DNA of 64,000 bases from positions 1 through 64,000 of the IMG/VR virus record IMGVR_UViG_2513237360_000007. One strand, 5' to 3'. A program made the translations under genes and the position numbers. The first letter of the stretch is position 1. The number at the start of each line of letters is the position of its first letter. The stretch comes from a virus. Taxonomy: Duplodnaviria; Caudoviricetes. Below are positions 1,556 through 19,025 of this stretch, one piece after another. The notes below the pieces were generated by a model, which saw nothing but the letters and a program-made list of their open reading frames with translations, ran no database searches and was not told where the DNA came from.

Positions 1556-1711
1556 ATATTTATCCTCTCCAGCAAGTACAATATTCTACATGATTCCCCC
1601 TGATCTGTCTGTTTCTATTATACTATTAATTCGTTAAAATACCACCAGTTTTTTAATCTAGGCTACCTTGACTGTTACGATCCAGAAATATCAGCTGATT
1701 CAATACCTGTT

Positions 1712-2056
1712 TTAAGCTTTTAAGTGCCAGTAGTAGCTTACATCTTCTCCATCCGGGATCTCACCATTTTTCCAATGATCTGATGGTACAATTTCTCTAT
1801 AATCAAAATCATCTAAATCCAAAAGAATTTCATCACGCCCAACTGCATCCTCCACTTTCCGTATTGCATCTCCTGAATTTTCCGCGTTAACAATCACAGT
1901 CCTTTTAAATATTTCTCTTACACTAACTGCATATCTTCCCATATTATTTTTATCCTTTCTCCACCAGTCTGTTTTCTCACATTTCTTGCAAATCTCAATA
2001 TTGTCAAGCCATGTCCAAAGAATAGGGAATTCCCCTAAGTAACAGTTCTTAGTCAA
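1712..2056 (-). CDS. DpnD/PcfM-like protein (may start at 1942)
   Basis: YAVSVREIFKRTVIVNAENSGDAIRKVEDAV..DEILLD.DDF motif. Confidence 0.7.
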   Translation of the reverse strand: MTKNCYLGEFPILWTWLDNIEICKKCEKTDWWRKDKNNMGRYAVSVREIFKRTVIVNAENSGDAIRKVEDAVGRDEILLDLDDFDYREIVPSDHWKNGEIPDGEDVSYYWHLKA

Positions 2057-2582
2057 TTAAATCTTTATAACGTTTCAACATTTTTTTGATATCTTCTGAT
2101 CTGTAATGACACCAGACTCTCTTACCATCTTCATATTCTGCACATACGCCCACATCCAGAATATCACCAGAAAACATCGCCCGTTTTGGTATAATATCTG
2201 CTGAATGTCCAACCACTTCCATATTATTTTTCAAACAATAGCATGCCATTTCATATGGGGTTCCATATAACCACGAATTGCACATTTCATGATATCCTAA
2301 TTCATCACCATTTAACCTATTTTGCATTGCCCTTAATACTTCTTTTGCCTTGTCATGGTATTTTACTTTAAACTCTTCCTCGGTCATTTCGACCCGAAAC
2401 ATAAGAGAGGCATCTATCTTTTCTTCATCTCCACCCTTCCGCCACATTTCTACTGTGACATAGGCCGAATTAATAGATTTTACAATTGCTGAAAAATATC
2501 TGTTACTTCCTCCACCTTCTGTCCCTTTAATTTCCTGTCCTACTCTTAAATGCTTATACGTTACTAATTTATTTTCTATCAT
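2049..2582 (-). CDS. Hypothetical phage protein (177 aa)
   Basis: ORF with AAGGAG RBS; overlaps next gene by 8 nt. Confidence 0.75.
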   Translation of the reverse strand: MIENKLVTYKHLRVGQEIKGTEGGGSNRYFSAIVKSINSAYVTVEMWRKGGDEEKIDASLMFRVEMTEEEFKVKYHDKAKEVLRAMQNRLNGDELGYHEMCNSWLYGTPYEMACYCLKNNMEVVGHSADIIPKRAMFSGDILDVGVCAEYEDGKRVWCHYRSEDIKKMLKRYKDLID

Positions 2583-2934
2583 TCTTCTCCTTATTTCCCT
2601 TTAGTAATTAGATAATTTTCCAGGTTAAAAATCGCCCATCGAAGTGTTGCCCCTGCTTCTATATCATGCTCCCTTTCTGCTCGCCTGAGCAGTTCATATG
2701 ATTTTTCAATCTTTGGCACATCCATATTTTTTATATTCTCCTAATAACTTAGCTACTCATCCATACATAATTGGTTCATTTTATTTAAATTTTGACGTGC
2801 TATTTCCTCGGTGTCTCTTCTATTTATCCTTTTCCTCCAAAATTCTTGTGTTCCATACCTTTCAACCATTAATTACCGATGTGTCGTTTAATTTGCCAGT
2901 TCTATCTAATCTTATCGCCTTCCTTCTTGTTTCG

Positions 2935-2943
2935 TGATATAAT
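2935..2943 (+). promoter_or_regulatory. Extended -10 promoter for K+ channel gene
   Basis: TG-A-TATAAT 31 nt upstream of ATG 2975. Confidence 0.55.
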
Positions 2944-2974
2944 TTAGTTGTAATTCATTTTGGGGGAGACATTT

Positions 2975-3763
2975 ATGAAAAAAAGAATATTTGAGATTAT
3001 TCAGTCAGCAAATACCGGTGATATTGCAAGTAAGATATTTGATTTATTTATCATGCTTCTTGTAATAATCAATTCAATAACGATAATGATTGATACTTTT
3101 TCTTTGCCTCAGAACTTCAAGACAACTATCCGTATAATTGATACTTCTACATCAATCATTTTTTCTATTGAATACGCATTAAGAATTTGGACCGCTCCGT
3201 TTTTATTTCCAAATAAATCAAATACAAAAGCGCGTATACGTTATATCTTTTCCTTTATGGCTATAATAGATTTACTTGCTATACTTCCATTTTACCTACC
3301 AATGTTAATACCATTTAATCTAAAGTCATTAAGATTGTTACGCTTAACACGCTTATTACGAATATTTAAAATGAACCGATATACAAACGCACTCTATAAA
3401 GTCGGAGCTGTTTTCAAAGCCAAGGCTAGTCAATTAATATCTTCTATGCTAGTTGTGGTAATGCTTATTATTTTGTCATCAATTTTAATGTTTAACATTG
3501 AAAATACTGCCCAACCGGAAGCCTTCACCAATATCTTTGATAGTATGTGGTGGGCTGTTGCCACTTTCACTACTGTTGGATACGGAGATATTTACCCGAT
3601 CACCGTAGCCGGTAAACTTTTAAGTACAATCATAGCGTTTCTTGGAATTGGACTAGTTGCTGTCCCAACTGGTATTATCTCTGCAGGTTTTGTAGAACAG
3701 ATTGATAAACATGATGATGATAAAAAACATTATTGCCCTTACTGCGGCAAACGATTAGATTAA
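2975..3763 (+). CDS. Voltage-gated-type (6TM) potassium channel / ion transporter, moron gene
   Basis: Selectivity filter TTVGYGD, pore helix DSMWWAVAT, S4-like LRLLRLTRLLRIFK, C-terminal CPYCG; opposite strand to neighbours; GGGGAG RBS. Confidence 0.93.
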   Translation: MKKRIFEIIQSANTGDIASKIFDLFIMLLVIINSITIMIDTFSLPQNFKTTIRIIDTSTSIIFSIEYALRIWTAPFLFPNKSNTKARIRYIFSFMAIIDLLAILPFYLPMLIPFNLKSLRLLRLTRLLRIFKMNRYTNALYKVGAVFKAKASQLISSMLVVVMLIILSSILMFNIENTAQPEAFTNIFDSMWWAVATFTTVGYGDIYPITVAGKLLSTIIAFLGIGLVAVPTGIISAGFVEQIDKHDDDKKHYCPYCGKRLD

Positions 3764-3831
3764 TCTGAATAAGAGGATCCTTGTGTTGTTATACTATTTA
3801 TATTGCATCAAATATTCCAGCACTAGATATC

Positions 3832-4071
3832 TCATAAGCACTTCCTACAAAATTTTGCTATAGCCTCTCGATTTTCTAGCGTATCAATCCAGCCAAAATA
3901 TCTTCTGCCAAAATTATCCGGAAGGTCCTCAACCGGAATGATTTTGATACCATCATGTACCGCCTGCTTCACGGCGCCTGAGTCATCTTCAAAAATTCCT
4001 GCTGCATCAACTTTCTGGATTTCCAGCATTCCAGTTCCATCAAAATCAAAAATATCGTAACCTTTATTCAT
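3832..4071 (-). CDS. Hypothetical phage protein (79 aa)
   Basis: ORF with AAGGAG RBS. Confidence 0.7.
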   Translation of the reverse strand: MNKGYDIFDFDGTGMLEIQKVDAAGIFEDDSGAVKQAVHDGIKIIPVEDLPDNFGRRYFGWIDTLENREAIAKFCRKCL

Positions 4072-4127
4072 AACATTACTCCTTCTTTAATTATTATCGA
4101 TCAAACAGATGATTGATTTACTAAATA

Positions 4128-4319
4128 TCAGTTTAGATGAATAACTTTTTCTACTCTTTCTAAGCTGAAGACGAATCCAACTACAATGATTTCTTTATCA
4201 TCCACTCTGATGTCTTCTAATGTGCCATCAAAATGAGTGCCATCATAGAATATTACATCAATTTCATCACCAATCTTGTAAAATTCCATGTCGTATTCAA
4301 ATCCTAAAAATACATCCAT
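4128..4319 (-). CDS. Hypothetical protein (63 aa, possible Sm/SH3-like fold)
   Basis: ORF with RBS; IGDEIDVIFYDGTHFDGTLEDI pattern; stop lies inside the boundary motif. Confidence 0.65.
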   Translation of the reverse strand: MDVFLGFEYDMEFYKIGDEIDVIFYDGTHFDGTLEDIRVDDKEIIVVGFVFSLERVEKVIHLN

Positions 4320-4527
4320 GTGTTTATCCTTCCTCCGATCATGCCGGAAACCCTAATCTACTGCCTTATATATAAAGGGCAAATACAAGAGTCCCATAAT
4401 GTCGTCAACCACTCTTGGCTGTATCTGGTGGTATATTAACAACTCCAATCCCTGCCATACCAGTGCAAGTATTATGTACCACCAACACGTTTTCATAATC
4501 CTATCCATATTTTCACTTCCTAAAATT

Positions 4528-4710
4528 TTAATCTGGGCGATAAAGAGAATATCGCTCGTGACACATATTTATGATTACCTGTTGCAACTCCCTTACATCG
4601 CTTTTCAGTTTTCTATTTTCTTCTTCCAGCATATAGTTCTTTTTGTTTAAGACTTCAAACTGCTCCAATGTCAATGGTGCTACTTCCATCTCTCTTACAC
4701 ATTCTGACAT
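4528..4710 (-). CDS. Small coiled-coil protein (60 aa)
   Basis: ORF with AAGG RBS; heptad pattern. Confidence 0.6.
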   Translation of the reverse strand: MSECVREMEVAPLTLEQFEVLNKKNYMLEEENRKLKSDVRELQQVIINMCHERYSLYRPD

Positions 4711-4765
4711 ATTTTTTCCTTTCCTTCTGGTTCCCCGGAAAATGTTAATACTGCTGATATCAGTT

Positions 4766-5104
4766 TTATGAACGTACTCGCTCAGTAATATCTTTATATC
4801 CCAATTTTTTCAACCTGGCAGAAAACTCTGTTATAGATGGCTGTTCTTTATTATGGTCAATTTCAGCCATCAATTTTATTAACTCAGGCATTTTGCTTAA
4901 TGCCTCCCATGAATCATCATAGGCTTTTAATCGTATCCCAATACTATCCCACACAATTTCAAATTCGCCTTCTGTGCCGTCATTCTCATAGTAGAATCCA
5001 ATCATCAAATATGGATGCTTTGAAAACAGCTTAGCAGAAGTCTCTCCAAACCATGCTTCATGTGGGATTGAAAATGCTTTTGCTGATTCTAAAAAATCTT
5101 TCAT
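4766..5104 (-). CDS. Hypothetical phage protein (112 aa)
   Basis: ORF with GGAGG RBS. Confidence 0.75.
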   Translation of the reverse strand: MKDFLESAKAFSIPHEAWFGETSAKLFSKHPYLMIGFYYENDGTEGEFEIVWDSIGIRLKAYDDSWEALSKMPELIKLMAEIDHNKEQPSITEFSARLKKLGYKDITERVRS

Positions 5105-5116
5105 ATCTGTCCTCCG

Positions 5117-5502
5117 AAATACTAATTTAATCCTCCTTAATTCCCCGCCCGAGGCAGTTCGGGCAAATCTCAGTTTTGAAGACTATCTGTTATCTCAGTT
5201 GCAATACGGTCACTGACAGTTCTAATCACATCGCCTTTGTCTATATTTTCCATAAGGCATTTAACCGCTTCATCCGTGACCTTTTCTCTTACTACCCTGT
5301 CCACAGCATCCCTCATATAACTATTCCAGTCCCATTCCCGCATCAAAGTGTTAATTCTGTCACCCATGCGCTTTCTAATCTGGTTAACTGCCCACTCTTT
5401 TAACTCCACCTCATTAATTTCTATTTGCATTTTTTACCTCCTTAAACATTAATTTAATCCTCCTTAATTCCCCGCCCGAGGCAGTTCGGGCAAATTTCAG
5501 TC
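5117..5502. repeat. 59-bp direct repeat pair (5117-5175 and 5444-5502) flanking gene 5170-5430
   Basis: Identical 37-nt core TAATCCTCCTTAATTCCCCGCCCGAGGCAGTTCGGGC at 5128-5164 and 5455-5491, each bracketed by two copies of the 11-bp motif. Confidence 0.92.
5170..5430 (-). CDS. Hypothetical protein (86 aa)
   Basis: ORF with AAGGAGG RBS. Confidence 0.75.
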   Translation of the reverse strand: MQIEINEVELKEWAVNQIRKRMGDRINTLMREWDWNSYMRDAVDRVVREKVTDEAVKCLMENIDKGDVIRTVSDRIATEITDSLQN

Positions 5503-5822
5503 TCATAACTCCAGTACCACTTATGGCACTGCTCACATACGGCAAACTCCTGATCTCTGAATTGTTCGTCTACATAGGTTTCGGGGTGCTGCCAGTCCAC
5601 AGAATCAAATACAACCTGTGCAATTTCCTCTTGCTCATTACACATTGCCAGAAAATCGCGGTGGGTGTACTTGCTATCAGACTGCTCCGGAATATAGCAG
5701 ACTATATCAAGGCCGCTGTCATATGCCTCATTACTTTTATATATCATTCCTTGGCCATAAAACTCCCTTTGAATTGTCTCGGCTTTATTTCCTGTGGCAG
5801 GTATATATTTTCCGACTACCAT
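5454..5822 (-). CDS. Hypothetical protein with C-terminal Zn ribbon (CEQC...CPNC)
   Basis: ORF with GAGGTG RBS; two CxxC pairs. Confidence 0.75.
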   Translation of the reverse strand: MVVGKYIPATGNKAETIQREFYGQGMIYKSNEAYDSGLDIVCYIPEQSDSKYTHRDFLAMCNEQEEIAQVVFDSVDWQHPETYVDEQFRDQEFAVCEQCHKWYWSYETEICPNCLGRGIKED

Positions 5823-5853
5823 TTAGCACCTCTCTTTTTCTTAAAGTATCAGT

Positions 5854-6243
5854 TTAGATTGGCAGCGAAATGTGTTCTGGTGTAATTAGAAGTGTTTGAA
5901 TACCATTCACAGAACCAATGTGCATTTCACTTACTTCACTAGGCTTACAATTATCTTCACTTTCCCAAATCGTATTTACCATAATTGGCAAATTGATACC
6001 TTGCAAGTATTTTGTATGTCCATCTACATCATCCGTAAGAATACTAAAAGACTTGCTACCAGTACATTTCTGTTTATTTCGCATAGCCTCTGCATCCTTG
6101 TAAAAACGGTCAATCTTATTCCATGCATCAGTCATTGATTCAGAATCTTTAATATCTTCGCACAAAGAATATACAAGCATTTTTAATTCATCTGCATAAT
6201 TTGATGCTAATTCGATATTCATTTCTTTCAATTTTTTTGTCAT
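5854..6243 (-). CDS. Hypothetical protein (129 aa)
   Basis: ORF with GAGGT RBS. Confidence 0.7.
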   Translation of the reverse strand: MTKKLKEMNIELASNYADELKMLVYSLCEDIKDSESMTDAWNKIDRFYKDAEAMRNKQKCTGSKSFSILTDDVDGHTKYLQGINLPIMVNTIWESEDNCKPSEVSEMHIGSVNGIQTLLITPEHISLPI

Positions 6244-6262
6244 TATTTTACCTCATTAAATA

Positions 6263-6682
6263 TCAGTTTAGCAGATTAGGGCTATCATAAATATTCCCCA
6301 TAATAACAAGTTCTTCACAACAAGACAAATAATCATAATTTGTTCCATATTCGTCTTTTCCATTTGTCCCCTTAAAATTCAGCTCTGATTCATCCCAAAT
6401 AATCTTTCTAACATTGACTTGTCCATCATAGACACATTCGACAATGTCACCTTCCCATATCTTTAAACCGTTTTTATCAGTTAATCCGGTACACTGGCAG
6501 ATGGTGGACGGTTCTATCTCAATCCATTCGTCATATCCGTAAAATGGCCAATTTTCAAATCTATAAAATACATCATCATTATATATTGGAAGTATATAAT
6601 GACATTTACGATAGAGTACATAATACCCTTCCACCCATTCGCCATTATCACGACCCTTTGCCTTAAACAATATTTCTCTCAC
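6263..6682 (-). CDS. YopX-family protein
   Basis: MREILFKAK..NGEWVEG, TICQCTGLTDKNG.KIWEGDIV, GNIYDSPNLL motifs. Confidence 0.9.
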   Translation of the reverse strand: MREILFKAKGRDNGEWVEGYYVLYRKCHYILPIYNDDVFYRFENWPFYGYDEWIEIEPSTICQCTGLTDKNGLKIWEGDIVECVYDGQVNVRKIIWDESELNFKGTNGKDEYGTNYDYLSCCEELVIMGNIYDSPNLLN

Positions 6683-6721
6683 TTTATAGCCCCTTTCGCT
6701 TAATTGGTTAAATCCTAATTT

Positions 6722-6922
6722 TCAGTTATAAATCGGATTACCCACAGCATCTATTCCAATCAGAGATCCGCGCATATCATCTTCTTCCAAACCATTTTCA
6801 CGCATAAAATCTGTTCTTGCTGCAATATCACAAATTGCAACATATGGATCATCACACCCACAACCTGAAGCACTGCAATATGTTCCACGTTCGGTATCTT
6901 CCGCATACTTACATTCCTTCAT
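6722..6922 (-). CDS. Small Cys-containing hypothetical protein (66 aa)
   Basis: GAGGAGG RBS before ATG 6922. Confidence 0.65.
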   Translation of the reverse strand: MKECKYAEDTERGTYCSASGCGCDDPYVAICDIAARTDFMRENGLEEDDMRGSLIGIDAVGNPIYN

Positions 6923-6940
6923 TGTTGACCTCCTCAAATC

Positions 6941-7168
6941 CTAATTTTCCGTTCCCGTCATGAAGGGAAGAAGTATCTCTCCCCTTATATTTACGTGCAA
7001 TTCATCCAGCGTCCACCCATCAGCATATTCAAAAATCGGTTCGTCATATGGTTCTATAGGAGTTCCGTGAGCCGTCCAGAACTGATGGGAATCATCAAAA
7101 CCGGTATCTTTAAAAATCGTACAATGATACAACTCCTCTAATTGCTTTTTTGTGTATCGCTCTTTCAT
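6941..7168 (-). CDS. Hypothetical protein (75 aa)
   Basis: GGAGG RBS. Confidence 0.7.
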   Translation of the reverse strand: MKERYTKKQLEELYHCTIFKDTGFDDSHQFWTAHGTPIEPYDEPIFEYADGWTLDELHVNIRGEILLPFMTGTEN

Positions 7169-7183
7169 ATAGCCTCCAAATTA

Positions 7184-7318
7184 TTAATCTACCTGAATAC
7201 AATCAACCTGAAATGGTGCGTCTTCTAGGGCTTCAAAAACAACCTCTGACAATGTATATTTTCCGGCAATCTCATCATCAACTGTTATTGTCATTTTGAC
7301 TGTATATTGTTTTTCCAT
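7184..7318 (-). CDS. Small hypothetical protein (44 aa, MEKQYTVKMTITVDDE...)
   Basis: GGAGG RBS; fills the space between two boundary motifs; below ORF-track cutoff. Confidence 0.6.
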   Translation of the reverse strand: MEKQYTVKMTITVDDEIAGKYTLSEVVFEALEDAPFQVDCIQVD

Positions 7319-7436
7319 GATCTTCCTCCAAAATTTCAGTTCTGTTTATTGGAATTATATGCCAGCTTTCCCCATGTCCAAATATTCCGCACAAAAATTG
7401 TTTTAATCTTCTCATAACTTCTCCTTAAATTTTAAT

Positions 7437-7528
7437 TGGTGCAGGTAGGCTGGAATCGAACCAGCGCCGTACAACACCGACATTTAATATCTGGCGCTGT
7501 TGTCCTGCCAACTTGGACTACTACCCGC
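7437..7528 (-). ncRNA. tRNA-like RNA with 8-bp acceptor stem, extended anticodon arm and encoded CCA
   Basis: GCGGGTAG/CTACCTGC acceptor, GTCC/GGAC D stem, GCTGG-TTCGATT-CCAGC T arm, ends ACCA; 11-bp bulged anticodon arm with loop ATTAAAT. Confidence 0.8.
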
Positions 7529-7547
7529 CTAAATCCTAATTTCACAG

Positions 7548-8381
7548 TTAAAATCCGTTCCATATTTTCTGATCATGATATCGGAAACATTCTGCATCTT
7601 GGCACTCCTTCGGCATCAAATCCTCGATCCGTTTGCGTGATCGGGAAATATAAAGCTTGCTCCGTATCTGCGTGTTTGGCTGCTCACACTCTAACATACG
7701 GTCAAATTCAACCAGTTCGCAGTACTGATCTGTATGATTATTCCGCAGATATTCAAAAAAGTAATTCCGATGAAATGGGCAAAATGTACATGCGCTGGCC
7801 CTTGTTTCCAGCCCCCACACATCTCGTATGTATGCATAGTTGTCTTTACGTTCCAACCCCATCTCGACCAGCGGAAAATAATTCACAAACATCTTGTGCG
7901 GATTTTCTTTGCAGCGCTGTTTCTCCTCGGCAGAAAATCCAATGTGCATCTCATGGGCTTTTAGATCCTCCGGCCTTGTTCTCTGTCCCTTTCGGTATCC
8001 CAGCAGATTCCATCGTACATACTTCTGGATCAGACCAATCTTATAATCCATTGTGCAGTTACGCATCATTTTGCCCTTTTTTCCGTCCAGATCCAATGTC
8101 CAGAATGGGATAGACACGACACGCCTGTTACCGAAATCCCGCAAATAATCTTGATATAATGGTGACGTTAGAACCTCAAATCTTATTCCGGCATCCTCAC
8201 AGGCAGTCTGTACAAACCTTACCTGATCTATAACCCAAGGTGGCTCTTTTCCAAGATCGCAAAAGACCACTAGATCATAAACTGGTACAATCGGGTACCT
8301 CCCGGGATGCCGTACATTTTCGCAAGCCATTAGGGCCAATGCAGTACTTTGCATTCCCGCTCCACAACTTAATATTTTCAT
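7548..8381 (-). CDS. PAPS-reductase-like / adenine nucleotide alpha-hydrolase (PP-loop) protein
   Basis: N-terminal ILSCGAGMQST PP-loop, VFCDLGKE, CTMDYKI, SACTFCPF. Confidence 0.75.
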   Translation of the reverse strand: MKILSCGAGMQSTALALMACENVRHPGRYPIVPVYDLVVFCDLGKEPPWVIDQVRFVQTACEDAGIRFEVLTSPLYQDYLRDFGNRRVVSIPFWTLDLDGKKGKMMRNCTMDYKIGLIQKYVRWNLLGYRKGQRTRPEDLKAHEMHIGFSAEEKQRCKENPHKMFVNYFPLVEMGLERKDNYAYIRDVWGLETRASACTFCPFHRNYFFEYLRNNHTDQYCELVEFDRMLECEQPNTQIRSKLYISRSRKRIEDLMPKECQDAECFRYHDQKIWNGF

Positions 8382-8446
8382 GTCTCAAAAGGTTCCGTGT
8401 ACACTTTCCCGGCCGGGGAACGGCTCCTTTCTTAGTCCTCAAAATA

Positions 8447-8656
8447 TCAGTTTTGTTGTGTAACCTTATCCTTTTTTGCGTATTCTATACAAAATTTCAA
8501 CAGCGCTTCTTGCTCATCTTTTCTTAATATTTCTTCCAATTCAAGTGCATTATCAGAAATAAAAAATAATAACCGTCTTGCCTTGAAAGCTTCCGAATAA
8601 CTACATTTATGCGCTTTTTGTATGTCTGAAATCTTGTATATATTAGTATCCTTCAT
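8447..8656 (-). CDS. Hypothetical protein (69 aa)
   Basis: GGAGG RBS before ATG 8656. Confidence 0.65.
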   Translation of the reverse strand: MKDTNIYKISDIQKAHKCSYSEAFKARRLLFFISDNALELEEILRKDEQEALLKFCIEYAKKDKVTQQN

Positions 8657-8674
8657 ACTAAGTTCCTCCAAATT

Positions 8675-8839
8675 TTAATTCTTCTGCTCACGAATTAACC
8701 GTTCGCACTCTTCTGTTGATAATTTACAAATACATCCCTGACAACTTTTCCTTGTCACTGCACATCTATAAGCTTCGTCATATTCGTTCCCGTTACGAAA
8801 TGGAATAACTACAACATAAGGACAGTTATAAAAATCCAT
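8675..8839 (-). CDS. Small Cys-rich protein (54 aa, MDFYNCPY...CQGCICK)
   Basis: AGGAG RBS; stop inside boundary motif; below ORF-track cutoff. Confidence 0.6.
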   Translation of the reverse strand: MDFYNCPYVVVIPFRNGNEYDEAYRCAVTRKSCQGCICKLSTEECERLIREQKN

Positions 8840-8866
8840 AGTTTTCTCCTTTTAAAAATAGCGATT

Positions 8867-9058
8867 CTATTTCCTTTCACAAGACAAATACCCTTCAAGC
8901 CACTTATAACAATCCGATGACCTTTTAGTACATAACCAGCCAGCTTCATCAAAATCTGCAAGCATTTCTCGAACGGATTTCATCCCTTTCGCCTGTTCTT
9001 CATCACTACATATCTCTATTAACTTATCAATAGCATCCATCATTTCATCTGTTACCAT
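8867..9058 (-). CDS. Hypothetical protein (63 aa)
   Basis: AAGGAGG RBS. Confidence 0.65.
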   Translation of the reverse strand: MVTDEMMDAIDKLIEICSDEEQAKGMKSVREMLADFDEAGWLCTKRSSDCYKWLEGYLSCERK

Positions 9059-9317
9059 TGTTAGTTTCCTCCTTATCGAATCCTGATTTTATCTCTTGAT
9101 TCAACTTATTTTATGGTGATCCCTGTATTCTTTACACATCTGACGATCCCAAACACTCTTCTATAAGGTTCCATATTGTCATACTCATTTCTTCATCGTC
9201 CTCAATACTGTGTCCTACATATTCTTCTATCCGTTGCTTTTCATTAAGACTGAACGTCATCAATACATTTAAAATTTCTTTCAACGCTTCTCCTACTAAA
9301 CTACAATATTACATAAT

Positions 9318-9352
9318 AAAAAACCACTAACTCCATATTTAAGTTAGCGGTT
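9318..9352 (-). terminator. Rho-independent terminator downstream of GNAT gene
   Basis: AACCACTAACT(9322-9332)/AGTTAGCGGTT(9342-9352) stem, followed by a T run on the minus strand. Confidence 0.7.
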
Positions 9353-9427
9353 CCCTATTTACATATTATTAAAACTGGATTTTGTACGACAGCATATCAC
9401 CGTAACGATTATTACAACCGGAAATTA

Positions 9428-9955
9428 TCAATCTATATCAATCCAATATCTTTGCTCTGTTTTCCCTTGATTTTGAATCTCATTTTCCAAGATTCCACCA
9501 TTGTTTTGAATGGATTTTGCTGAGCCGATATTATCCTTGTCGCATACCATTAGAACCTTATGAATTCCAAGTATTTTGCATTCTTCTAATGCTAATGCAA
9601 TCATTTTTGTGGCATATCCTTTTCTTCTTTCCGATGGTCGAATTCCATCACCGATATGACCCCCAAATTGTAGTAAATAATCATTTAAATAGTGGCGAAT
9701 ATTCACAGCACCAACAATAATATTTCTTTCGTTATCCAAACAAAAAAATGTTGAATCTGGAACCATTCCTTCTCCAGCTTTCTTACAATCTAGATTTGAA
9801 ATGTAGGATGTAAAATTGTGGTAGTCATTTCTGAAAATTGCCCAAGGAGAATGATTGGCAGATGCATGGTTATTATTATAATCAATCCATTCTTCCAGCA
9901 TATTTACTATTAAATTTTCATACTGAGCACTTGCCTTTACTAATCTTAACGCCAT
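9428..9955 (-). CDS. GNAT-family N-acetyltransferase (moron-like)
   Basis: IVGAVNIRHYLN..L..FGGHIGDGIRPSERRKGYAT, NIGSAKSIQNNGG motifs. Confidence 0.92.
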   Translation of the reverse strand: MALRLVKASAQYENLIVNMLEEWIDYNNNHASANHSPWAIFRNDYHNFTSYISNLDCKKAGEGMVPDSTFFCLDNERNIIVGAVNIRHYLNDYLLQFGGHIGDGIRPSERRKGYATKMIALALEECKILGIHKVLMVCDKDNIGSAKSIQNNGGILENEIQNQGKTEQRYWIDID

Positions 9956-10007
9956 AATTTATCATCCTCCACAAATACCATTTTCTATTTACAATATACA
10001 CCCGAAT

Positions 10008-10035
10008 ATACTAACTATCAATATAAACTTGTCAA
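10008..10035 (-). promoter_or_regulatory. Putative sigmaA promoter of GNAT gene
   Basis: TTGACA-16 nt-TAGTAT on minus strand. Confidence 0.45.
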
Positions 10036-10130
10036 GGTTCATTTACACTTTCAATATCGATTTTGTAAACTTAATTGTCCCATATATGCAACTATCTCTG
10101 GGACAACCATCTCTATCAATCTTAACCGTC

Positions 10131-10772: not shown

Positions 10773-11375
10773 TCAAAATAATTTCATTACCGCCCTTATT
10801 TTTTTTGATACATATCTCCTATGTAAGAAGCATAAATGTTTCCATGTGTCAATATTAAATCGGATTCTCATTTGATATAAAAATATCTCAGAAATCTTTT
10901 CCATGAAATCCCGCGGAAGGATATCCTGCTTAATACTATTACAGACCCTGCAGGTTGCTTGCAAGTTATCTAAATCATTAGTTCCGCCCTTTGATAAGGG
11001 AATAATATGATCGACTGTAAATTCATCAACCCCCATGAATCTCCCACATAAAACGCAGCGACCTTTTGATTTTGCATAAATGACTTTTCTTTCAGCTGGC
11101 TCGAATCGCCTTCTTTTTGACATCGTTCTTATATCCATCGCAGCATCTTCATTCAATGACATGATATAGAAATTTTTTAATTTTCTGGTTGCTTTATTCA
11201 GCACGGCCCTTGCTTCTTCAGAACTTGAAAACTGTTGTGCCTTTCGCTTACTGCTTGTCTTATTAATTTTCCCCCCAGTACTATAGGACATATACTGCGT
11301 GCCATTTGTGATCACATAATTCAAGAATCTACCTTTCTTCATTCCTTTCCCCTGGCTATGAAGCCAAGTCTTCAT
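10773..11375 (-). CDS. HNH endonuclease
   Basis: CVLCG...TVDHIIPLSKGGTNDLDNLQATCRVCN. Confidence 0.92.
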   Translation of the reverse strand: MKTWLHSQGKGMKKGRFLNYVITNGTQYMSYSTGGKINKTSSKRKAQQFSSSEEARAVLNKATRKLKNFYIMSLNEDAAMDIRTMSKRRRFEPAERKVIYAKSKGRCVLCGRFMGVDEFTVDHIIPLSKGGTNDLDNLQATCRVCNSIKQDILPRDFMEKISEIFLYQMRIRFNIDTWKHLCFLHRRYVSKKIRAVMKLF

Positions 11376-11467
11376 TCACATCATCAATATCATGACATTG
11401 ATTCCACAGCGTCAGACTAGCATGATCTGTCTGTACACCCTCGGTTTTACCACCCACTCTATTTCCT

Positions 11468-12094
11468 CTAGTGTTTCTTAAACCAGACCGACTGCCCGGG
11501 TTTCAAACTCCAGCAAGAGTTCTCTGTTGTCACGCATTTGCCGCAGTAGCCAGTGCATTCAATCGCATCATCAGGTATCTCACATTCTGAATCGTTCAGT
11601 CGGACCCAGGAAGTGGGGAGATTATGCGGATTCTCACATCTCCATCTCCCCCAATTACTAAAGACCAAAATCAAATTTGACGGTTTCCTTCGCCTGTCCA
11701 AATACTCATTGACCAATTCATATTTCTTAGTGAAACAAAGGAATCTGGTAAACCTATGTTTCCGTGCCAATTTGCACATCAACTCTAAATACTGCTGATC
11801 AGGTATATCACCGCTTGAATGCCATCTGAAATACTTGTACGGGACCATGGTTAATACCGAATCAATCACATTGAAATACCCCTGCGGATTATCTTGGTAG
11901 GCCATTAAGTTTTTTCTTAAACTTTCCTTCACACGATCAAATGCAAAATTCCCTCGTAAAGCGTAGCATTTACGATTACAGGGAGCATCCCTCCTACAGG
12001 TCTCACCCACAGGAAGATTAACACTTGCAATGCTGGCTCCCAATTTTGAGATTCCCGTGGATATTCTCGGATAAACAAGTTTATCACTTTTCAT
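11468..12094 (-). CDS. GP88-like (radical-SAM-related) phage protein
   Basis: LPVGETC....PC...CYA; FRWHSSGD; WCFTK-like CFTKK; C-terminal CxGxCGxC. Confidence 0.7.
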   Translation of the reverse strand: MKSDKLVYPRISTGISKLGASIASVNLPVGETCRRDAPCNRKCYALRGNFAFDRVKESLRKNLMAYQDNPQGYFNVIDSVLTMVPYKYFRWHSSGDIPDQQYLELMCKLARKHRFTRFLCFTKKYELVNEYLDRRRKPSNLILVFSNWGRWRCENPHNLPTSWVRLNDSECEIPDDAIECTGYCGKCVTTENSCWSLKPGQSVWFKKH

Positions 12095-16171: not shown

Positions 16172-17122
16172 TTACGCCACAATTGAAATTTTGTTATCAA
16201 CATAGGCAAATCTGTTACGGCTCCCAAAACGCTCTTTCAGCAGATCATCAGCATACAGCACACATGCAACCCTATAATTCCGATTTGGATAGGCCAAATG
16301 AGCCCGCTCTTTAAATGCCGTGGGCGAACTTTCCCTTAGCAAGGTTCCAAATATATTAACTATCTTACGTTCTTCCCCATATGCCTGGAAAATGTATTTC
16401 ATTGTTCTCATGGTATAGGTGGAATAACCAAAGGTTTCCATATCCCAGCCAGCATGGTGAATCACCTTGAACGCAAATTCCAACCCTTTCGGCCCATTCG
16501 TTTTTACAATGTCTAAGGCATCCAGATAGGATTTGAGATATACCTTTCCGTCTCTCCTCTCCTTTGTTGTTGGACTTATCAAAACACCATACTTCCTTGA
16601 CAGCGTATCAACTACGGATACAATAGGATCATTCAGAACAAGGGCTGCCGTATGCTGGTGTATTGCCTTCATTGGGCGTACCTCGTCATACTGTCCGCGG
16701 AAAAGCTCCGCTCCGTATCTCTCTATCTCATCATCTCCCACACTTAAATGGACATTTGCCAGGACATATTCACGCCCACACATCTGTGCAGCTATTACCC
16801 TGCCCATCCCCTCACACACATCAAAACTCCCTTTCTGAGGATTTGGTATGATATCTATATATCCAGCCTTTCTTAGATCAAAGTTCTGGCTTAAGGAGAG
16901 AATTTTATCTTCATTCAGAAAATGGATTCTATCGACTTGATATCTGGGAAAGTTTAGCATTGTAAGCGGAACTTTAGCTGTCCCTAAAATATCTCGTCCA
17001 TCTTCCGTTACCATTACATCAACATTTGCCAGCAGATCATTCATCCTTTCATGGTTTCCGACCCTGTTAAAATACTCCTCTGCTATTTCATAAATCCTTT
17101 TTACCATACTATATCCCTCCAT
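16172..17122 (-). CDS. ParB/Srx-like (DUF6551-like) protein
   Basis: YQVDR..., IDIIPNP...FDVCEGMGRVIAA resembles a degenerate ParB-N DGxHR motif. Confidence 0.5.
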   Translation of the reverse strand: MEGYSMVKRIYEIAEEYFNRVGNHERMNDLLANVDVMVTEDGRDILGTAKVPLTMLNFPRYQVDRIHFLNEDKILSLSQNFDLRKAGYIDIIPNPQKGSFDVCEGMGRVIAAQMCGREYVLANVHLSVGDDEIERYGAELFRGQYDEVRPMKAIHQHTAALVLNDPIVSVVDTLSRKYGVLISPTTKERRDGKVYLKSYLDALDIVKTNGPKGLEFAFKVIHHAGWDMETFGYSTYTMRTMKYIFQAYGEERKIVNIFGTLLRESSPTAFKERAHLAYPNRNYRVACVLYADDLLKERFGSRNRFAYVDNKISIVA

Positions 17123-18515: not shown

Positions 18516-19025
18516 CTATTTCCAGATTGAATCATGATTCGTTGATGCCTCGAACCGCGTCCCATTTCCCCGGCATTGCGGAATTGCGTTTATCCCCCTT
18601 TCAGGGGTCCTCCGAACCTTTAAGCGTGACGCCTTCGTCCATGACCTCGTAAGCAAAGGTCTACGCATTTTTTTGTACATCTGATTGGAATCCGGCAATT
18701 GTTCTACAGACAGATGAAAAATCCTTCTCTTTTCCAATATCATTTTTGCAAGGCAATGGGTCTGTGGAATCTCAATGTCGAACCAAATATTTTTGCCGTA
18801 AAGGTATGAGCGCAAAGATCCTTTGCTATAACGCTGTATGACAGGGGCGGCCTTGTCATCACTGACAATGTGAACGGTCAGTTTGCCATGGCGTAATCTG
18901 TAGTCATCACAGACATATGGTATACGCCCACTATCCACCCTATATTCCCCGTAACAAGCCCCCTTAGGGACTTTCCTGTCATATATGCAAGTGCAGAAAT
19001 CACCTGTAAAACGACATTGTTTCAT
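18516..19025 (-). CDS. Hypothetical protein (169 aa)
   Basis: AAGGAGG RBS before ATG 19025. Confidence 0.6.
   Translation of the reverse strand: MKQCRFTGDFCTCIYDRKVPKGACYGEYRVDSGRIPYVCDDYRLRHGKLTVHIVSDDKAAPVIQRYSKGSLRSYLYGKNIWFDIEIPQTHCLAKMILEKRRIFHLSVEQLPDSNQMYKKMRRPLLTRSWTKASRLKVRRTPERGINAIPQCRGNGTRFEASTNHDSIWK

Follow-up and report, generated by a model that had tools for sequence, protein, structure and literature searches.

A 12 nt, stop-codon-centred motif as the probable recombinational linker of a small-gene array in temperate phages of Lachnospiraceae

The early arm of the Caudoviricetes provirus IMGVR_UViG_2513237360_000007 contains an array of small, unrelated genes whose junctions share a short, strand-specific motif, and our analysis indicates that this motif is probably a conserved boundary or linker sequence of an accessory-gene array of Lachnospiraceae temperate phages, recombining by way of 7–13 nt of identity. 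The stretch of DNA analysed (hereafter the window) comprises bases 1–64000 of this 74.6 kb IMG/VR provirus record, in which the minus-strand genes between base 1 and about 20 kb make up the early/accessory arm. An earlier note, based on the letters of the window alone, had described a recurring AAYTRRNATTT at gene junctions between 1686 and 10062 and had suggested an integron-like cassette array. That extent was too wide, the true array reaching from about 4123 to 8870, and the integron-like mechanism was not supported. The view that the motif bounds cassettes of one gene each, open to insertion, loss and shuffling, was supported: the breakpoints of insertions, deletions and replacements in related phages fall inside the motif, and this idea thereby passed the refuting test that the note itself had set.

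The minus-strand array (4123..8870) consists of approximately 17 unrelated small open reading frames (ORFs) and one tRNA-like gene, all in a single orientation; in the span from 9058 to 4071, the ORFs encode 44–277 aa and are separated by spacers of 18–65 nt. When 100 unique junction copies from the window and related loci were pooled, the consensus was A-A-A-Y-T-R-R-N-A-T-T-T, so that AAYTRRNATTT is better given as the 12 nt AAAYTRRNATTT, with an information content of about 17 bits and two subtypes, AACTGAnATTT and AATTARnATTT. The window holds 13 exact copies of AAYTRRNATTT against 5.55 expected (SD 2.25), a number reached in none of 100 shuffles, and 11 of the 13 fall within 4123–8680, all of these on the minus strand. 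The count of about 20 copies given earlier is thus correct only if near-copies are included: with up to one mismatch, there are 19 minus-strand copies between 3800 and 9300, nearly all at junctions. Between 9058 and 4071, some 14 of 17 junctions hold a copy with no more than one mismatch and three further junctions hold two-mismatch variants (8856–8866, ~7180–7190 and ~4350–4360), in agreement with the claim that nearly every junction is marked.

The register of the motif is set by the gene that precedes it. In the pooled junctions, the stop codon of the upstream gene coincided with the TRR of the motif in 35 of 69 cases, while the distance to the next start codon varied from 10 to 60 nt. Because the upstream stop codon sits at TRR in the motif, seven genes of the array end in Asn-stop, as had been noticed (endings in Table 1). 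Equally, the copies at 5117, 6710 and 7531 lie past the true stop codon, that at 7427 follows the tRNA-like gene and that at 7331 is inside ORF 7278–7415 in another frame, which bears out the observation that some copies do not serve as stop codons. The enrichment survived a control for stop codons and AT content in which array genes were compared with those of the rest of the record. A stop codon lay within a full motif in 6 of 15 array genes and in 0 of 76 elsewhere; Asn was the last codon in 7 of 15 as against 1 of 76; and a copy with at most one mismatch lay within 50 nt upstream of the start codon in 10 of 15 as against 3 of 76 (P=1e-7), at a nearly equal AT content (0.63 versus 0.62). 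Shuffling the upstream regions produced 0.44 motif-bearing starts on average and never more than 4, compared with the 10 observed.

Related loci (L numbers) were fetched by means of the PAPS-reductase-like gene, the 60 aa ORF 4528–4710 and ORFs 5170–5430, 5454–5822 and 4766–5104. Copies of the same prophage, 98.6–99.9 % identical, varied by whole genes only, and each joint was within a copy of the motif. One form (L054; 99.9 % identical and found in 14 more places) lacks ORF 5170–5430 together with one copy of a 58 nt direct repeat. Another (L055; 99.8–99.9 % identical) carries two deletions relative to the window: the first removes 8437–6269, with its joint inside AAACTGATATTT (sites 8442–8452 and 6258–6268), and the second removes 5165–4149, with the joint AAACTGA-T-ATTT (sites 5165–5175 and 4123–4133). 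A third (L031; 98.6–99.2 % identical) lacks 8444–4767, the joint being in AAAACTGATAT, and has gained a 113 aa HNH gene, which sits where the window has motif 8670–8680 and is flanked by AATTAGAATTT and ATTAACATTT. The partners in these deletions rank among the best-matching motif pairs, and the commonest variant stems from the longest repeat (58 nt).

The two copies of this direct repeat differ in their setting (Table 1): copy A (58–59 nt) is coding, opens with the motif-like GACTGAAATTT and closes with AATTAATGTTT, whereas copy B is non-coding. Copy B has the appearance of a scar left by a motif-by-motif crossover, in which the 3′ motif of ORF 5170–5430 in one genome would have recombined with the motif-like site inside ORF 5454–5822 in another. 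The form without ORF 5170–5430 that is predicted by such a crossover is present in two loci (L054 and L060). As one of the partners is intragenic, it was sequence similarity, beyond any selection for intact genes, that guided this event.

Across other phages, a single cassette was found in five to six neighbourhoods, with its flanks parting at the motif. The PAPS-reductase-like gene, at 98–100 % identity, has six downstream contexts, which split at AAATTAACATTT (motif 7531..7541 of the window), and its upstream neighbours split at the variant AAATCGNTNTTT; the phages that carry it have unrelated replication and recombination modules (DUF3799-SSB-ERCC4, ERF-SSB or AAA_24-DnaB, one phage having a large serine recombinase). 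Homologues of ORF 5170–5430, 83 % identical, occur in at least five contexts in which both flanks part exactly at ATTT, and at 4523..4533 two loci (L009 and L025) part from the window and from one another. Arrays with the motif are also present in Diplocloster modestus (Lachnospiraceae), in a Ruminococcus metagenome-assembled genome and in further IMG/VR contigs without the PAPS-reductase-like gene, with all copies strand-specific. The motif was not found in L008, L017, L018 and L020, whose PAPS-reductase-like gene is 66–77 % identical; the motif thus belongs to certain phage groups rather than to that gene.

Two cassettes deserve separate mention. The PAPS-reductase-like protein is 100 % identical across L038–L047, phages with unrelated replication modules, and is indexed in 169 blocks of the assembly collection; the cassette has spread widely and very recently. 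In L007, one 67 aa cassette is present twice in a single array (11353–11556 and 18777–18980), 7 kb apart, with both copies beginning at ATTAAAATTT, and this pair is an intra-array cassette duplication.

The association between motif and breakpoint can also be put in numbers. Breakpoints occurred at 17 of 21 scorable junctions with the motif as against 17 of 65 without it (Fisher P=1.5e-5), 51 of 201 breakpoint clusters lay within 5 nt of a motif where 3.1 were expected, and the motif was the point of split in 56 of 98 pairwise context divergences. For recombinant joints with both parental forms available, the overlap common to the parents was 10–13 nt and corresponded to the motif. The position of the crossover within it is variable, some joints having it in the left half and others in ATTT: the L055 joint between 5175 and 4133 crossed in AAACTGA, to the left of N, and the PAPS/tRNA joint of the window maps to AAATTA, while many others map to ATTT. 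In the same phages, short linkers other than the motif also serve as joints, namely TAAACACAGATTTAGSGG, the ribosome-binding site (RBS) block AGGAAAGGAGGAT and TGAAGGGAGG.

Table 1. Motif copies and the 58 nt direct repeat in the minus-strand array (window positions; amino acid letters give the C-terminal ending of the gene)
Feature	Position	Strand	Sequence	Relation to genes and joints
Exact motif	8670..8680	−	AATTAAAATTT	Stop of ORF 8675–8839 (EQKN-stop); insertion point of the HNH cassette in L031
Exact motif	8442..8452	−	AACTGATATTT	Stop of ORF 8447–8656 (TQQN-stop); left joint of the L031 and L055 deletions; left border of the PAPS-reductase-like cassette
Exact motif	7531..7541	−	AATTAGGATTT	Follows the PAPS-reductase-like gene and precedes the tRNA-like gene by 3 nt
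Exact motif	7427..7437	−	AATTAAAATTT	Overlaps the CCA end of the tRNA-like gene; followed by the RBS of ORF 7278–7415
Exact motif	7331..7341	−	AACTGAAATTT	Precedes the RBS of ORF 7184–7318
Exact motif	6936..6946	−	AATTAGGATTT	Stop of ORF 6941–7168 (GTEN-stop)
Two overlapping copies	6710..6727	−	AACTGAAAATT (one mismatch), then AATTAGGATTT (exact)	AACTGAAAATT holds the stop of ORF 6722–6922 (PIYN-stop)
Exact motif	6258..6268	−	AACTGATATTT	Stop of YopX ORF 6263–6682 (NLLN-stop); right joint of the first L055 deletion
One-mismatch copy	5844..5854	−	AACTGATACTT	Overlaps the stop of ORF 5854–6243
Repeat copy A	5444..5502	−		Coding 3′ end of zinc-ribbon ORF 5454–5822
Repeat copy B	5117..5175	−		Non-coding; opens at the stop-motif of ORF 5170–5430
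Exact motif, start of repeat copy B	5165–5175	−	AACTGAGATTT	Stop of ORF 5170–5430 (SLQN-stop)
Exact motif, end of repeat copy B	5117	−	AATTAGTATTT	Downstream of the true stop
Composite junction	4740..4767	−	AAAACTGATAT (4757–4767), then TATTAACATTT (4740–4750)	AAAACTGATAT, joint of the L031 deletion; TATTAACATTT, border of the 60 aa cassette in L009, L010 and L025
One-mismatch copy	4523..4533	−	GATTAAAATTT	Stop of ORF 4528–4710
Exact motif	4123..4133	−	AACTGATATTT	Stop of ORF 4128–4319 (IHLN-stop); right joint of the second L055 deletion

A longer type of linker was also encountered, at 4716–4750 (minus strand), where the motif is followed by TCCGGGAGAACCGGAGGAAGGA. The latter is a small hairpin that pairs with the first bases of the Shine–Dalgarno sequence and recurs before many unrelated cassettes, the longer linker being present also in L006, L040, L043, L048, L052 and L087; it may be a translational attenuator.

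In the mechanism that we favour, a cassette would extend from linker to linker, in the form (ATTT)-RBS-ORF-AAAYTRRN-(ATTT), with the stop codon of the ORF mostly within the linker and the next start codon 10–30 nt further on. Since all cassettes end in nearly identical sequences of 12 bases, linker copies can pair and recombine; pairing, through 7–13 nt of identity, would involve copies of the same genome or of two phages that infect together or are resident, the likely routes being general or phage-encoded homologous or single-strand-annealing recombination, or replication slippage. Such an exchange would be in register, the upstream ORF retaining its stop codon and the downstream ORF its RBS, and whole-gene deletions, insertions and swaps would therefore yield viable phages. 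The sequences show the motif, its enrichment and the joints inside it in many independent rearrangements; the enzymes of the exchange are inferred, and the motif itself may be maintained through homogenization by these exchanges and the spread of linker-bearing cassettes, possibly with an added role in expression or protein binding. Recombination that depends on identity fits the variable crossover position, the use of best-matching partners and the joints at non-motif linkers. However, several points weigh against this explanation. An identity of 7–13 nt is short for recombination of the RecA or single-strand-annealing protein (SSAP) type, and neither an SSAP nor any other recombinase was found in the early arm when Pfam, PHROGs, NCBIfam, PDB sequences and the ESM Atlas were searched, which yielded only HNH, GP88 and DUF551 proteins, a peptidase-like protein and a ParB_N/DUF6551-like protein. 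The motif of about 17 bits is kept where the protein of the shared gene differs by 20–25 % (L006, L007 and L016), a conservation that exceeds the needs of microhomology and that recognition by a protein would fit. In addition, the loci behind the breakpoint statistics came via a few genes and hence are not independent, and, with the motif at nearly all array junctions, a breakpoint at the motif is partly confounded with a breakpoint at any junction of the variable region.

It is important that other origins of the motif are considered. That it is a chance product of AT-rich intergenic DNA and stop codons, or a relic of tandem duplication, has next to no probability: TRR does fit every stop codon and the AT content of the region is high, but this reading is refuted by the clustering of 11 of 13 exact copies within 4.6 kb on one strand, by shuffles that fall far below the observed count, by the contrast between array and remaining genes at equal AT content (P from 1e-5 to 1e-7), by the recurrence of the motif in the arrays of other phages and, as regards duplication, by array proteins that have no similarity to one another. 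An alternative that we consider unlikely is that the motif is primarily an expression signal at the level of the DNA or of the polycistronic transcript, be it a termination context, an AU-rich element that precedes the Shine–Dalgarno sequence, an RNase processing site or a site for a RegA-like or stoperator-like regulator, with recombination as a by-product of its repetition. This would account for the motif being kept and is consistent with the presence of every copy on the coding strand, with the fixed register of the stop codon in 35 of 69 junctions, with the many junctions at which the motif ends just before the RBS and with the hairpin of the longer linker, which masks part of the Shine–Dalgarno sequence. 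The spacing from motif to start codon is nevertheless too loose to sit easily with it (10–60 nt), the motif flanks a tRNA-like gene that has no RBS, and the late and replication genes of the same phage do without it. In two host genomes of related prophages, the 12-mer was counted 52 and 78 times as against 53 and 51 for a reversed control, which is background outside prophage clusters and implies that host ribosomes do not need it. As regards signals on DNA, TRRNAT slightly resembles a −10 box and CTGATATTT an extended −10 element, yet the subtypes shift the register of the hexamer and a promoter scan gave 41 sigma-70-like sites in 12 kb where 43.8 were expected, none of them coinciding with the motif. 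Neither a terminator scan nor the folding of junctions revealed a terminator or stem–loop at the motif. We also discarded an RNA family or structured element, given that the sole Rfam match was to the tRNA-like gene and that the folds had no structure in common, and we judged a stoperator-like repressor site unlikely, as the carriers of the motif have different immunity modules.

A dedicated site-specific recombinase or nuclease of phage or host, integron- or pdif-like, that recognizes AAAYTRR and exchanges strands in or next to NATTT is an explanation we regard as quite improbable, even though several observations are in its favour: a sharp, directional consensus of about 17 bits retained across diverged lineages, many independent joints in the 4–5 nt of NATTT, a motif at the 3′ end of the cassette that includes the stop codon, as attC often does, and an HNH endonuclease gene that is itself a cassette (L031). 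The proposal of a recombinase outside the window was right in so far as a gene for a 343 aa tyrosine recombinase lies about 750 bp past window base 1, on the array strand (L032, 11455 onward), but its place is beyond the array's distal end, and in most relatives no such gene adjoins the array. The record itself has only a fragment of an integrase (PF00589, 22.9 bits, 73274–73363), and no resolvase was found in it. In one related locus (L031, 10334–12034), the 343 aa enzyme is accompanied at the distal array end by a 199 aa MrpR_C-like protein; both genes are outside the IMG/VR provirus boundary, which means that the record was cut short on that side. In L040, the array ends with a different tyrosine recombinase together with a Rep protein, but the two array-end enzymes are merely 21 % identical, and in L038, L039 and L041–L047 no recombinase adjoins the array and the replication/recombination modules differ. 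Moreover, the crossover position is not fixed and non-motif linkers serve as breakpoints too. When 14 junctions, with spacers of merely 18–65 nt, were folded as single-stranded DNA, no common attC-like hairpin was seen; most z-scores were between −0.8 and +1.2, and two outliers (−2.8 and −1.9) had no structure in common. Two more specific resemblances were dropped: the reverse complement of AAATTAACATTT is reminiscent of the XerD arm of dif, but this concerns one variant only and the second arm is missing at a distance of 6 nt, and a Chi-like hotspot was not retained, known Chi sites being G-rich and acting at a distance.

How, then, does the linker compare with systems already described? The attC sites of integrons are imperfect inverted repeats of about 55–140 nt; they fold into hairpins, mark the 3′ ends of the cassettes and often overlap the stop codon, while crossover takes place at a single position of the core site and an IntI-type tyrosine recombinase, with attI and a promoter, adjoins the array and is conserved among carriers. 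Like integron cassettes, the units described here are co-oriented, promoterless single genes with a site at the 3′ end, at which close relatives have gained and lost genes; unlike them, they lack a hairpin of the attC type (55–140 nt), their crossover position varies and no array-linked IntI is conserved among their carriers. The start-associated sequence (SAS) of cluster K mycobacteriophages is a GC-rich 13 bp repeat with the RBS inside it and a constant spacing to the start codon, and to our knowledge it has not been linked to breakpoints. Both SAS and the present motif are short, asymmetric repeats in one orientation at many junctions of one genome arm, but the motif is registered on the upstream stop codon, has a variable distance to the start codon and is a breakpoint. 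A parallel is also provided by the PeSLs (promoter-early stem-loops) of T4-type phages, intergenic repeats between small non-essential ORFs of a hyperplastic region, which combine a strong sigma-70-like promoter, an AT-rich block and a stem–loop terminator and for which mini-circles have been shown (Arbiol et al. 2010, PMC2839356; Comeau et al. 2014, PMC4122927). In both cases, the repeats lie among small ORFs, cover the upstream stop codon (together with the downstream Shine–Dalgarno sequence in PeSLs) and mark the ends of insertions, deletions and replacements between close relatives. In contrast to PeSLs, the element is only 12 nt long and has neither promoter nor stem–loop, the hosts are Firmicutes and the phages are temperate. 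The boundary sequences of lambdoid phages were proposed, within the modular theory of Susskind and Botstein and for HK620/HK97, to guide homologous recombination between phages, and in lambdoid phages and mycobacteriophages they are present at only a minority of mosaic joints, as summarized in PMC3029335. Recombination guided in this way is also the mechanism that we favour here, and our motif resembles these boundary sequences as a short, conserved gene-boundary sequence between unrelated genes that is common to different phages, and mosaic joints fall on it with an overlap that equals the shared sequence; it differs in that one consensus, holding a stop codon, is found at nearly all junctions of the array and in many phage lineages.

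Several genes of the region merit a brief description. Within the array, ORF 7548–8381 encodes the PAPS-reductase-like protein (PHROG 424), without a Pfam match, and ORF 6263–6682 a YopX protein by family match; the remaining array ORFs scanned, which were the larger ones, had no significant family match. No paralogues were found when the array proteins were compared with one another, and an IMG/VR search returned no relative of the zinc-ribbon protein of ORF 5454–5822. The tRNA-like gene (7437–7528, minus strand) is itself a cassette flanked by two motif copies. It matches the Rfam tRNA family at 37.7 bits, with normal acceptor, D and T arms, but ARAGORN assigns no anticodon and the anticodon arm is a 13 bp hairpin with a 3 nt loop, so that decoding is impossible. 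Neither the related loci nor the phage collection yielded another copy. The gene may be a remnant, or it may function as a decoy or as a signal for processing. ORF 7278–7415 (45 aa, minus strand) runs through motif 7331–7341 and shares about 40 nt with the gene that follows; it is probably what remains of a cassette after a frameshift or truncation. Two genes of the region look like independent morons: an ion-channel gene (2960–3763, plus strand; Ion_trans, 1e-38), which is opposite in orientation to the array and has no motif on its own strand, and, directly upstream of the array, the self-contained region 9300–10040, where a GNAT acetyltransferase gene (9428–9955, minus strand) has its own sigma-70-like promoter (10035–10008) and a downstream hairpin with a T-run (~9310–9350). 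Further upstream, the 316 aa protein encoded at 16172–17122 (minus strand) has no match in Pfam, PHROG or NCBIfam and is grouped by the ESM Atlas with phage ParB_N/DUF6551-like proteins (TM 0.83).

The kind of phenomenon seen here, boundary linkers that shuffle phage accessory genes, is already known, and it is not an integron. The motif was not described in the literature searched; what is new is a linker of 12 nt, centred on a stop codon and without promoter or terminator, that is found across unrelated temperate phages of gut Lachnospiraceae and whose insertions and deletions are visible at the level of strains. Should a dedicated enzyme prove responsible after all, the array would represent a minimal, hairpin-free, integron-like system that moves single genes across a phage community, and thus a new kind of cassette system. 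The linker can be used as a marker to delimit cassettes and to find arrays in metagenomes; it also lends itself to testing, in a natural system, the long-standing linker hypothesis of modular phage evolution, and to measuring the minimal homology for phage recombination. In temperate phages of gut Firmicutes, small genes of unassigned function form long runs, and many of them are likely to serve in host takeover or anti-defence; for such genes, the motif offers an exchange rule at the level of sequence, in which a single 12 nt linker keeps recombinants in register.

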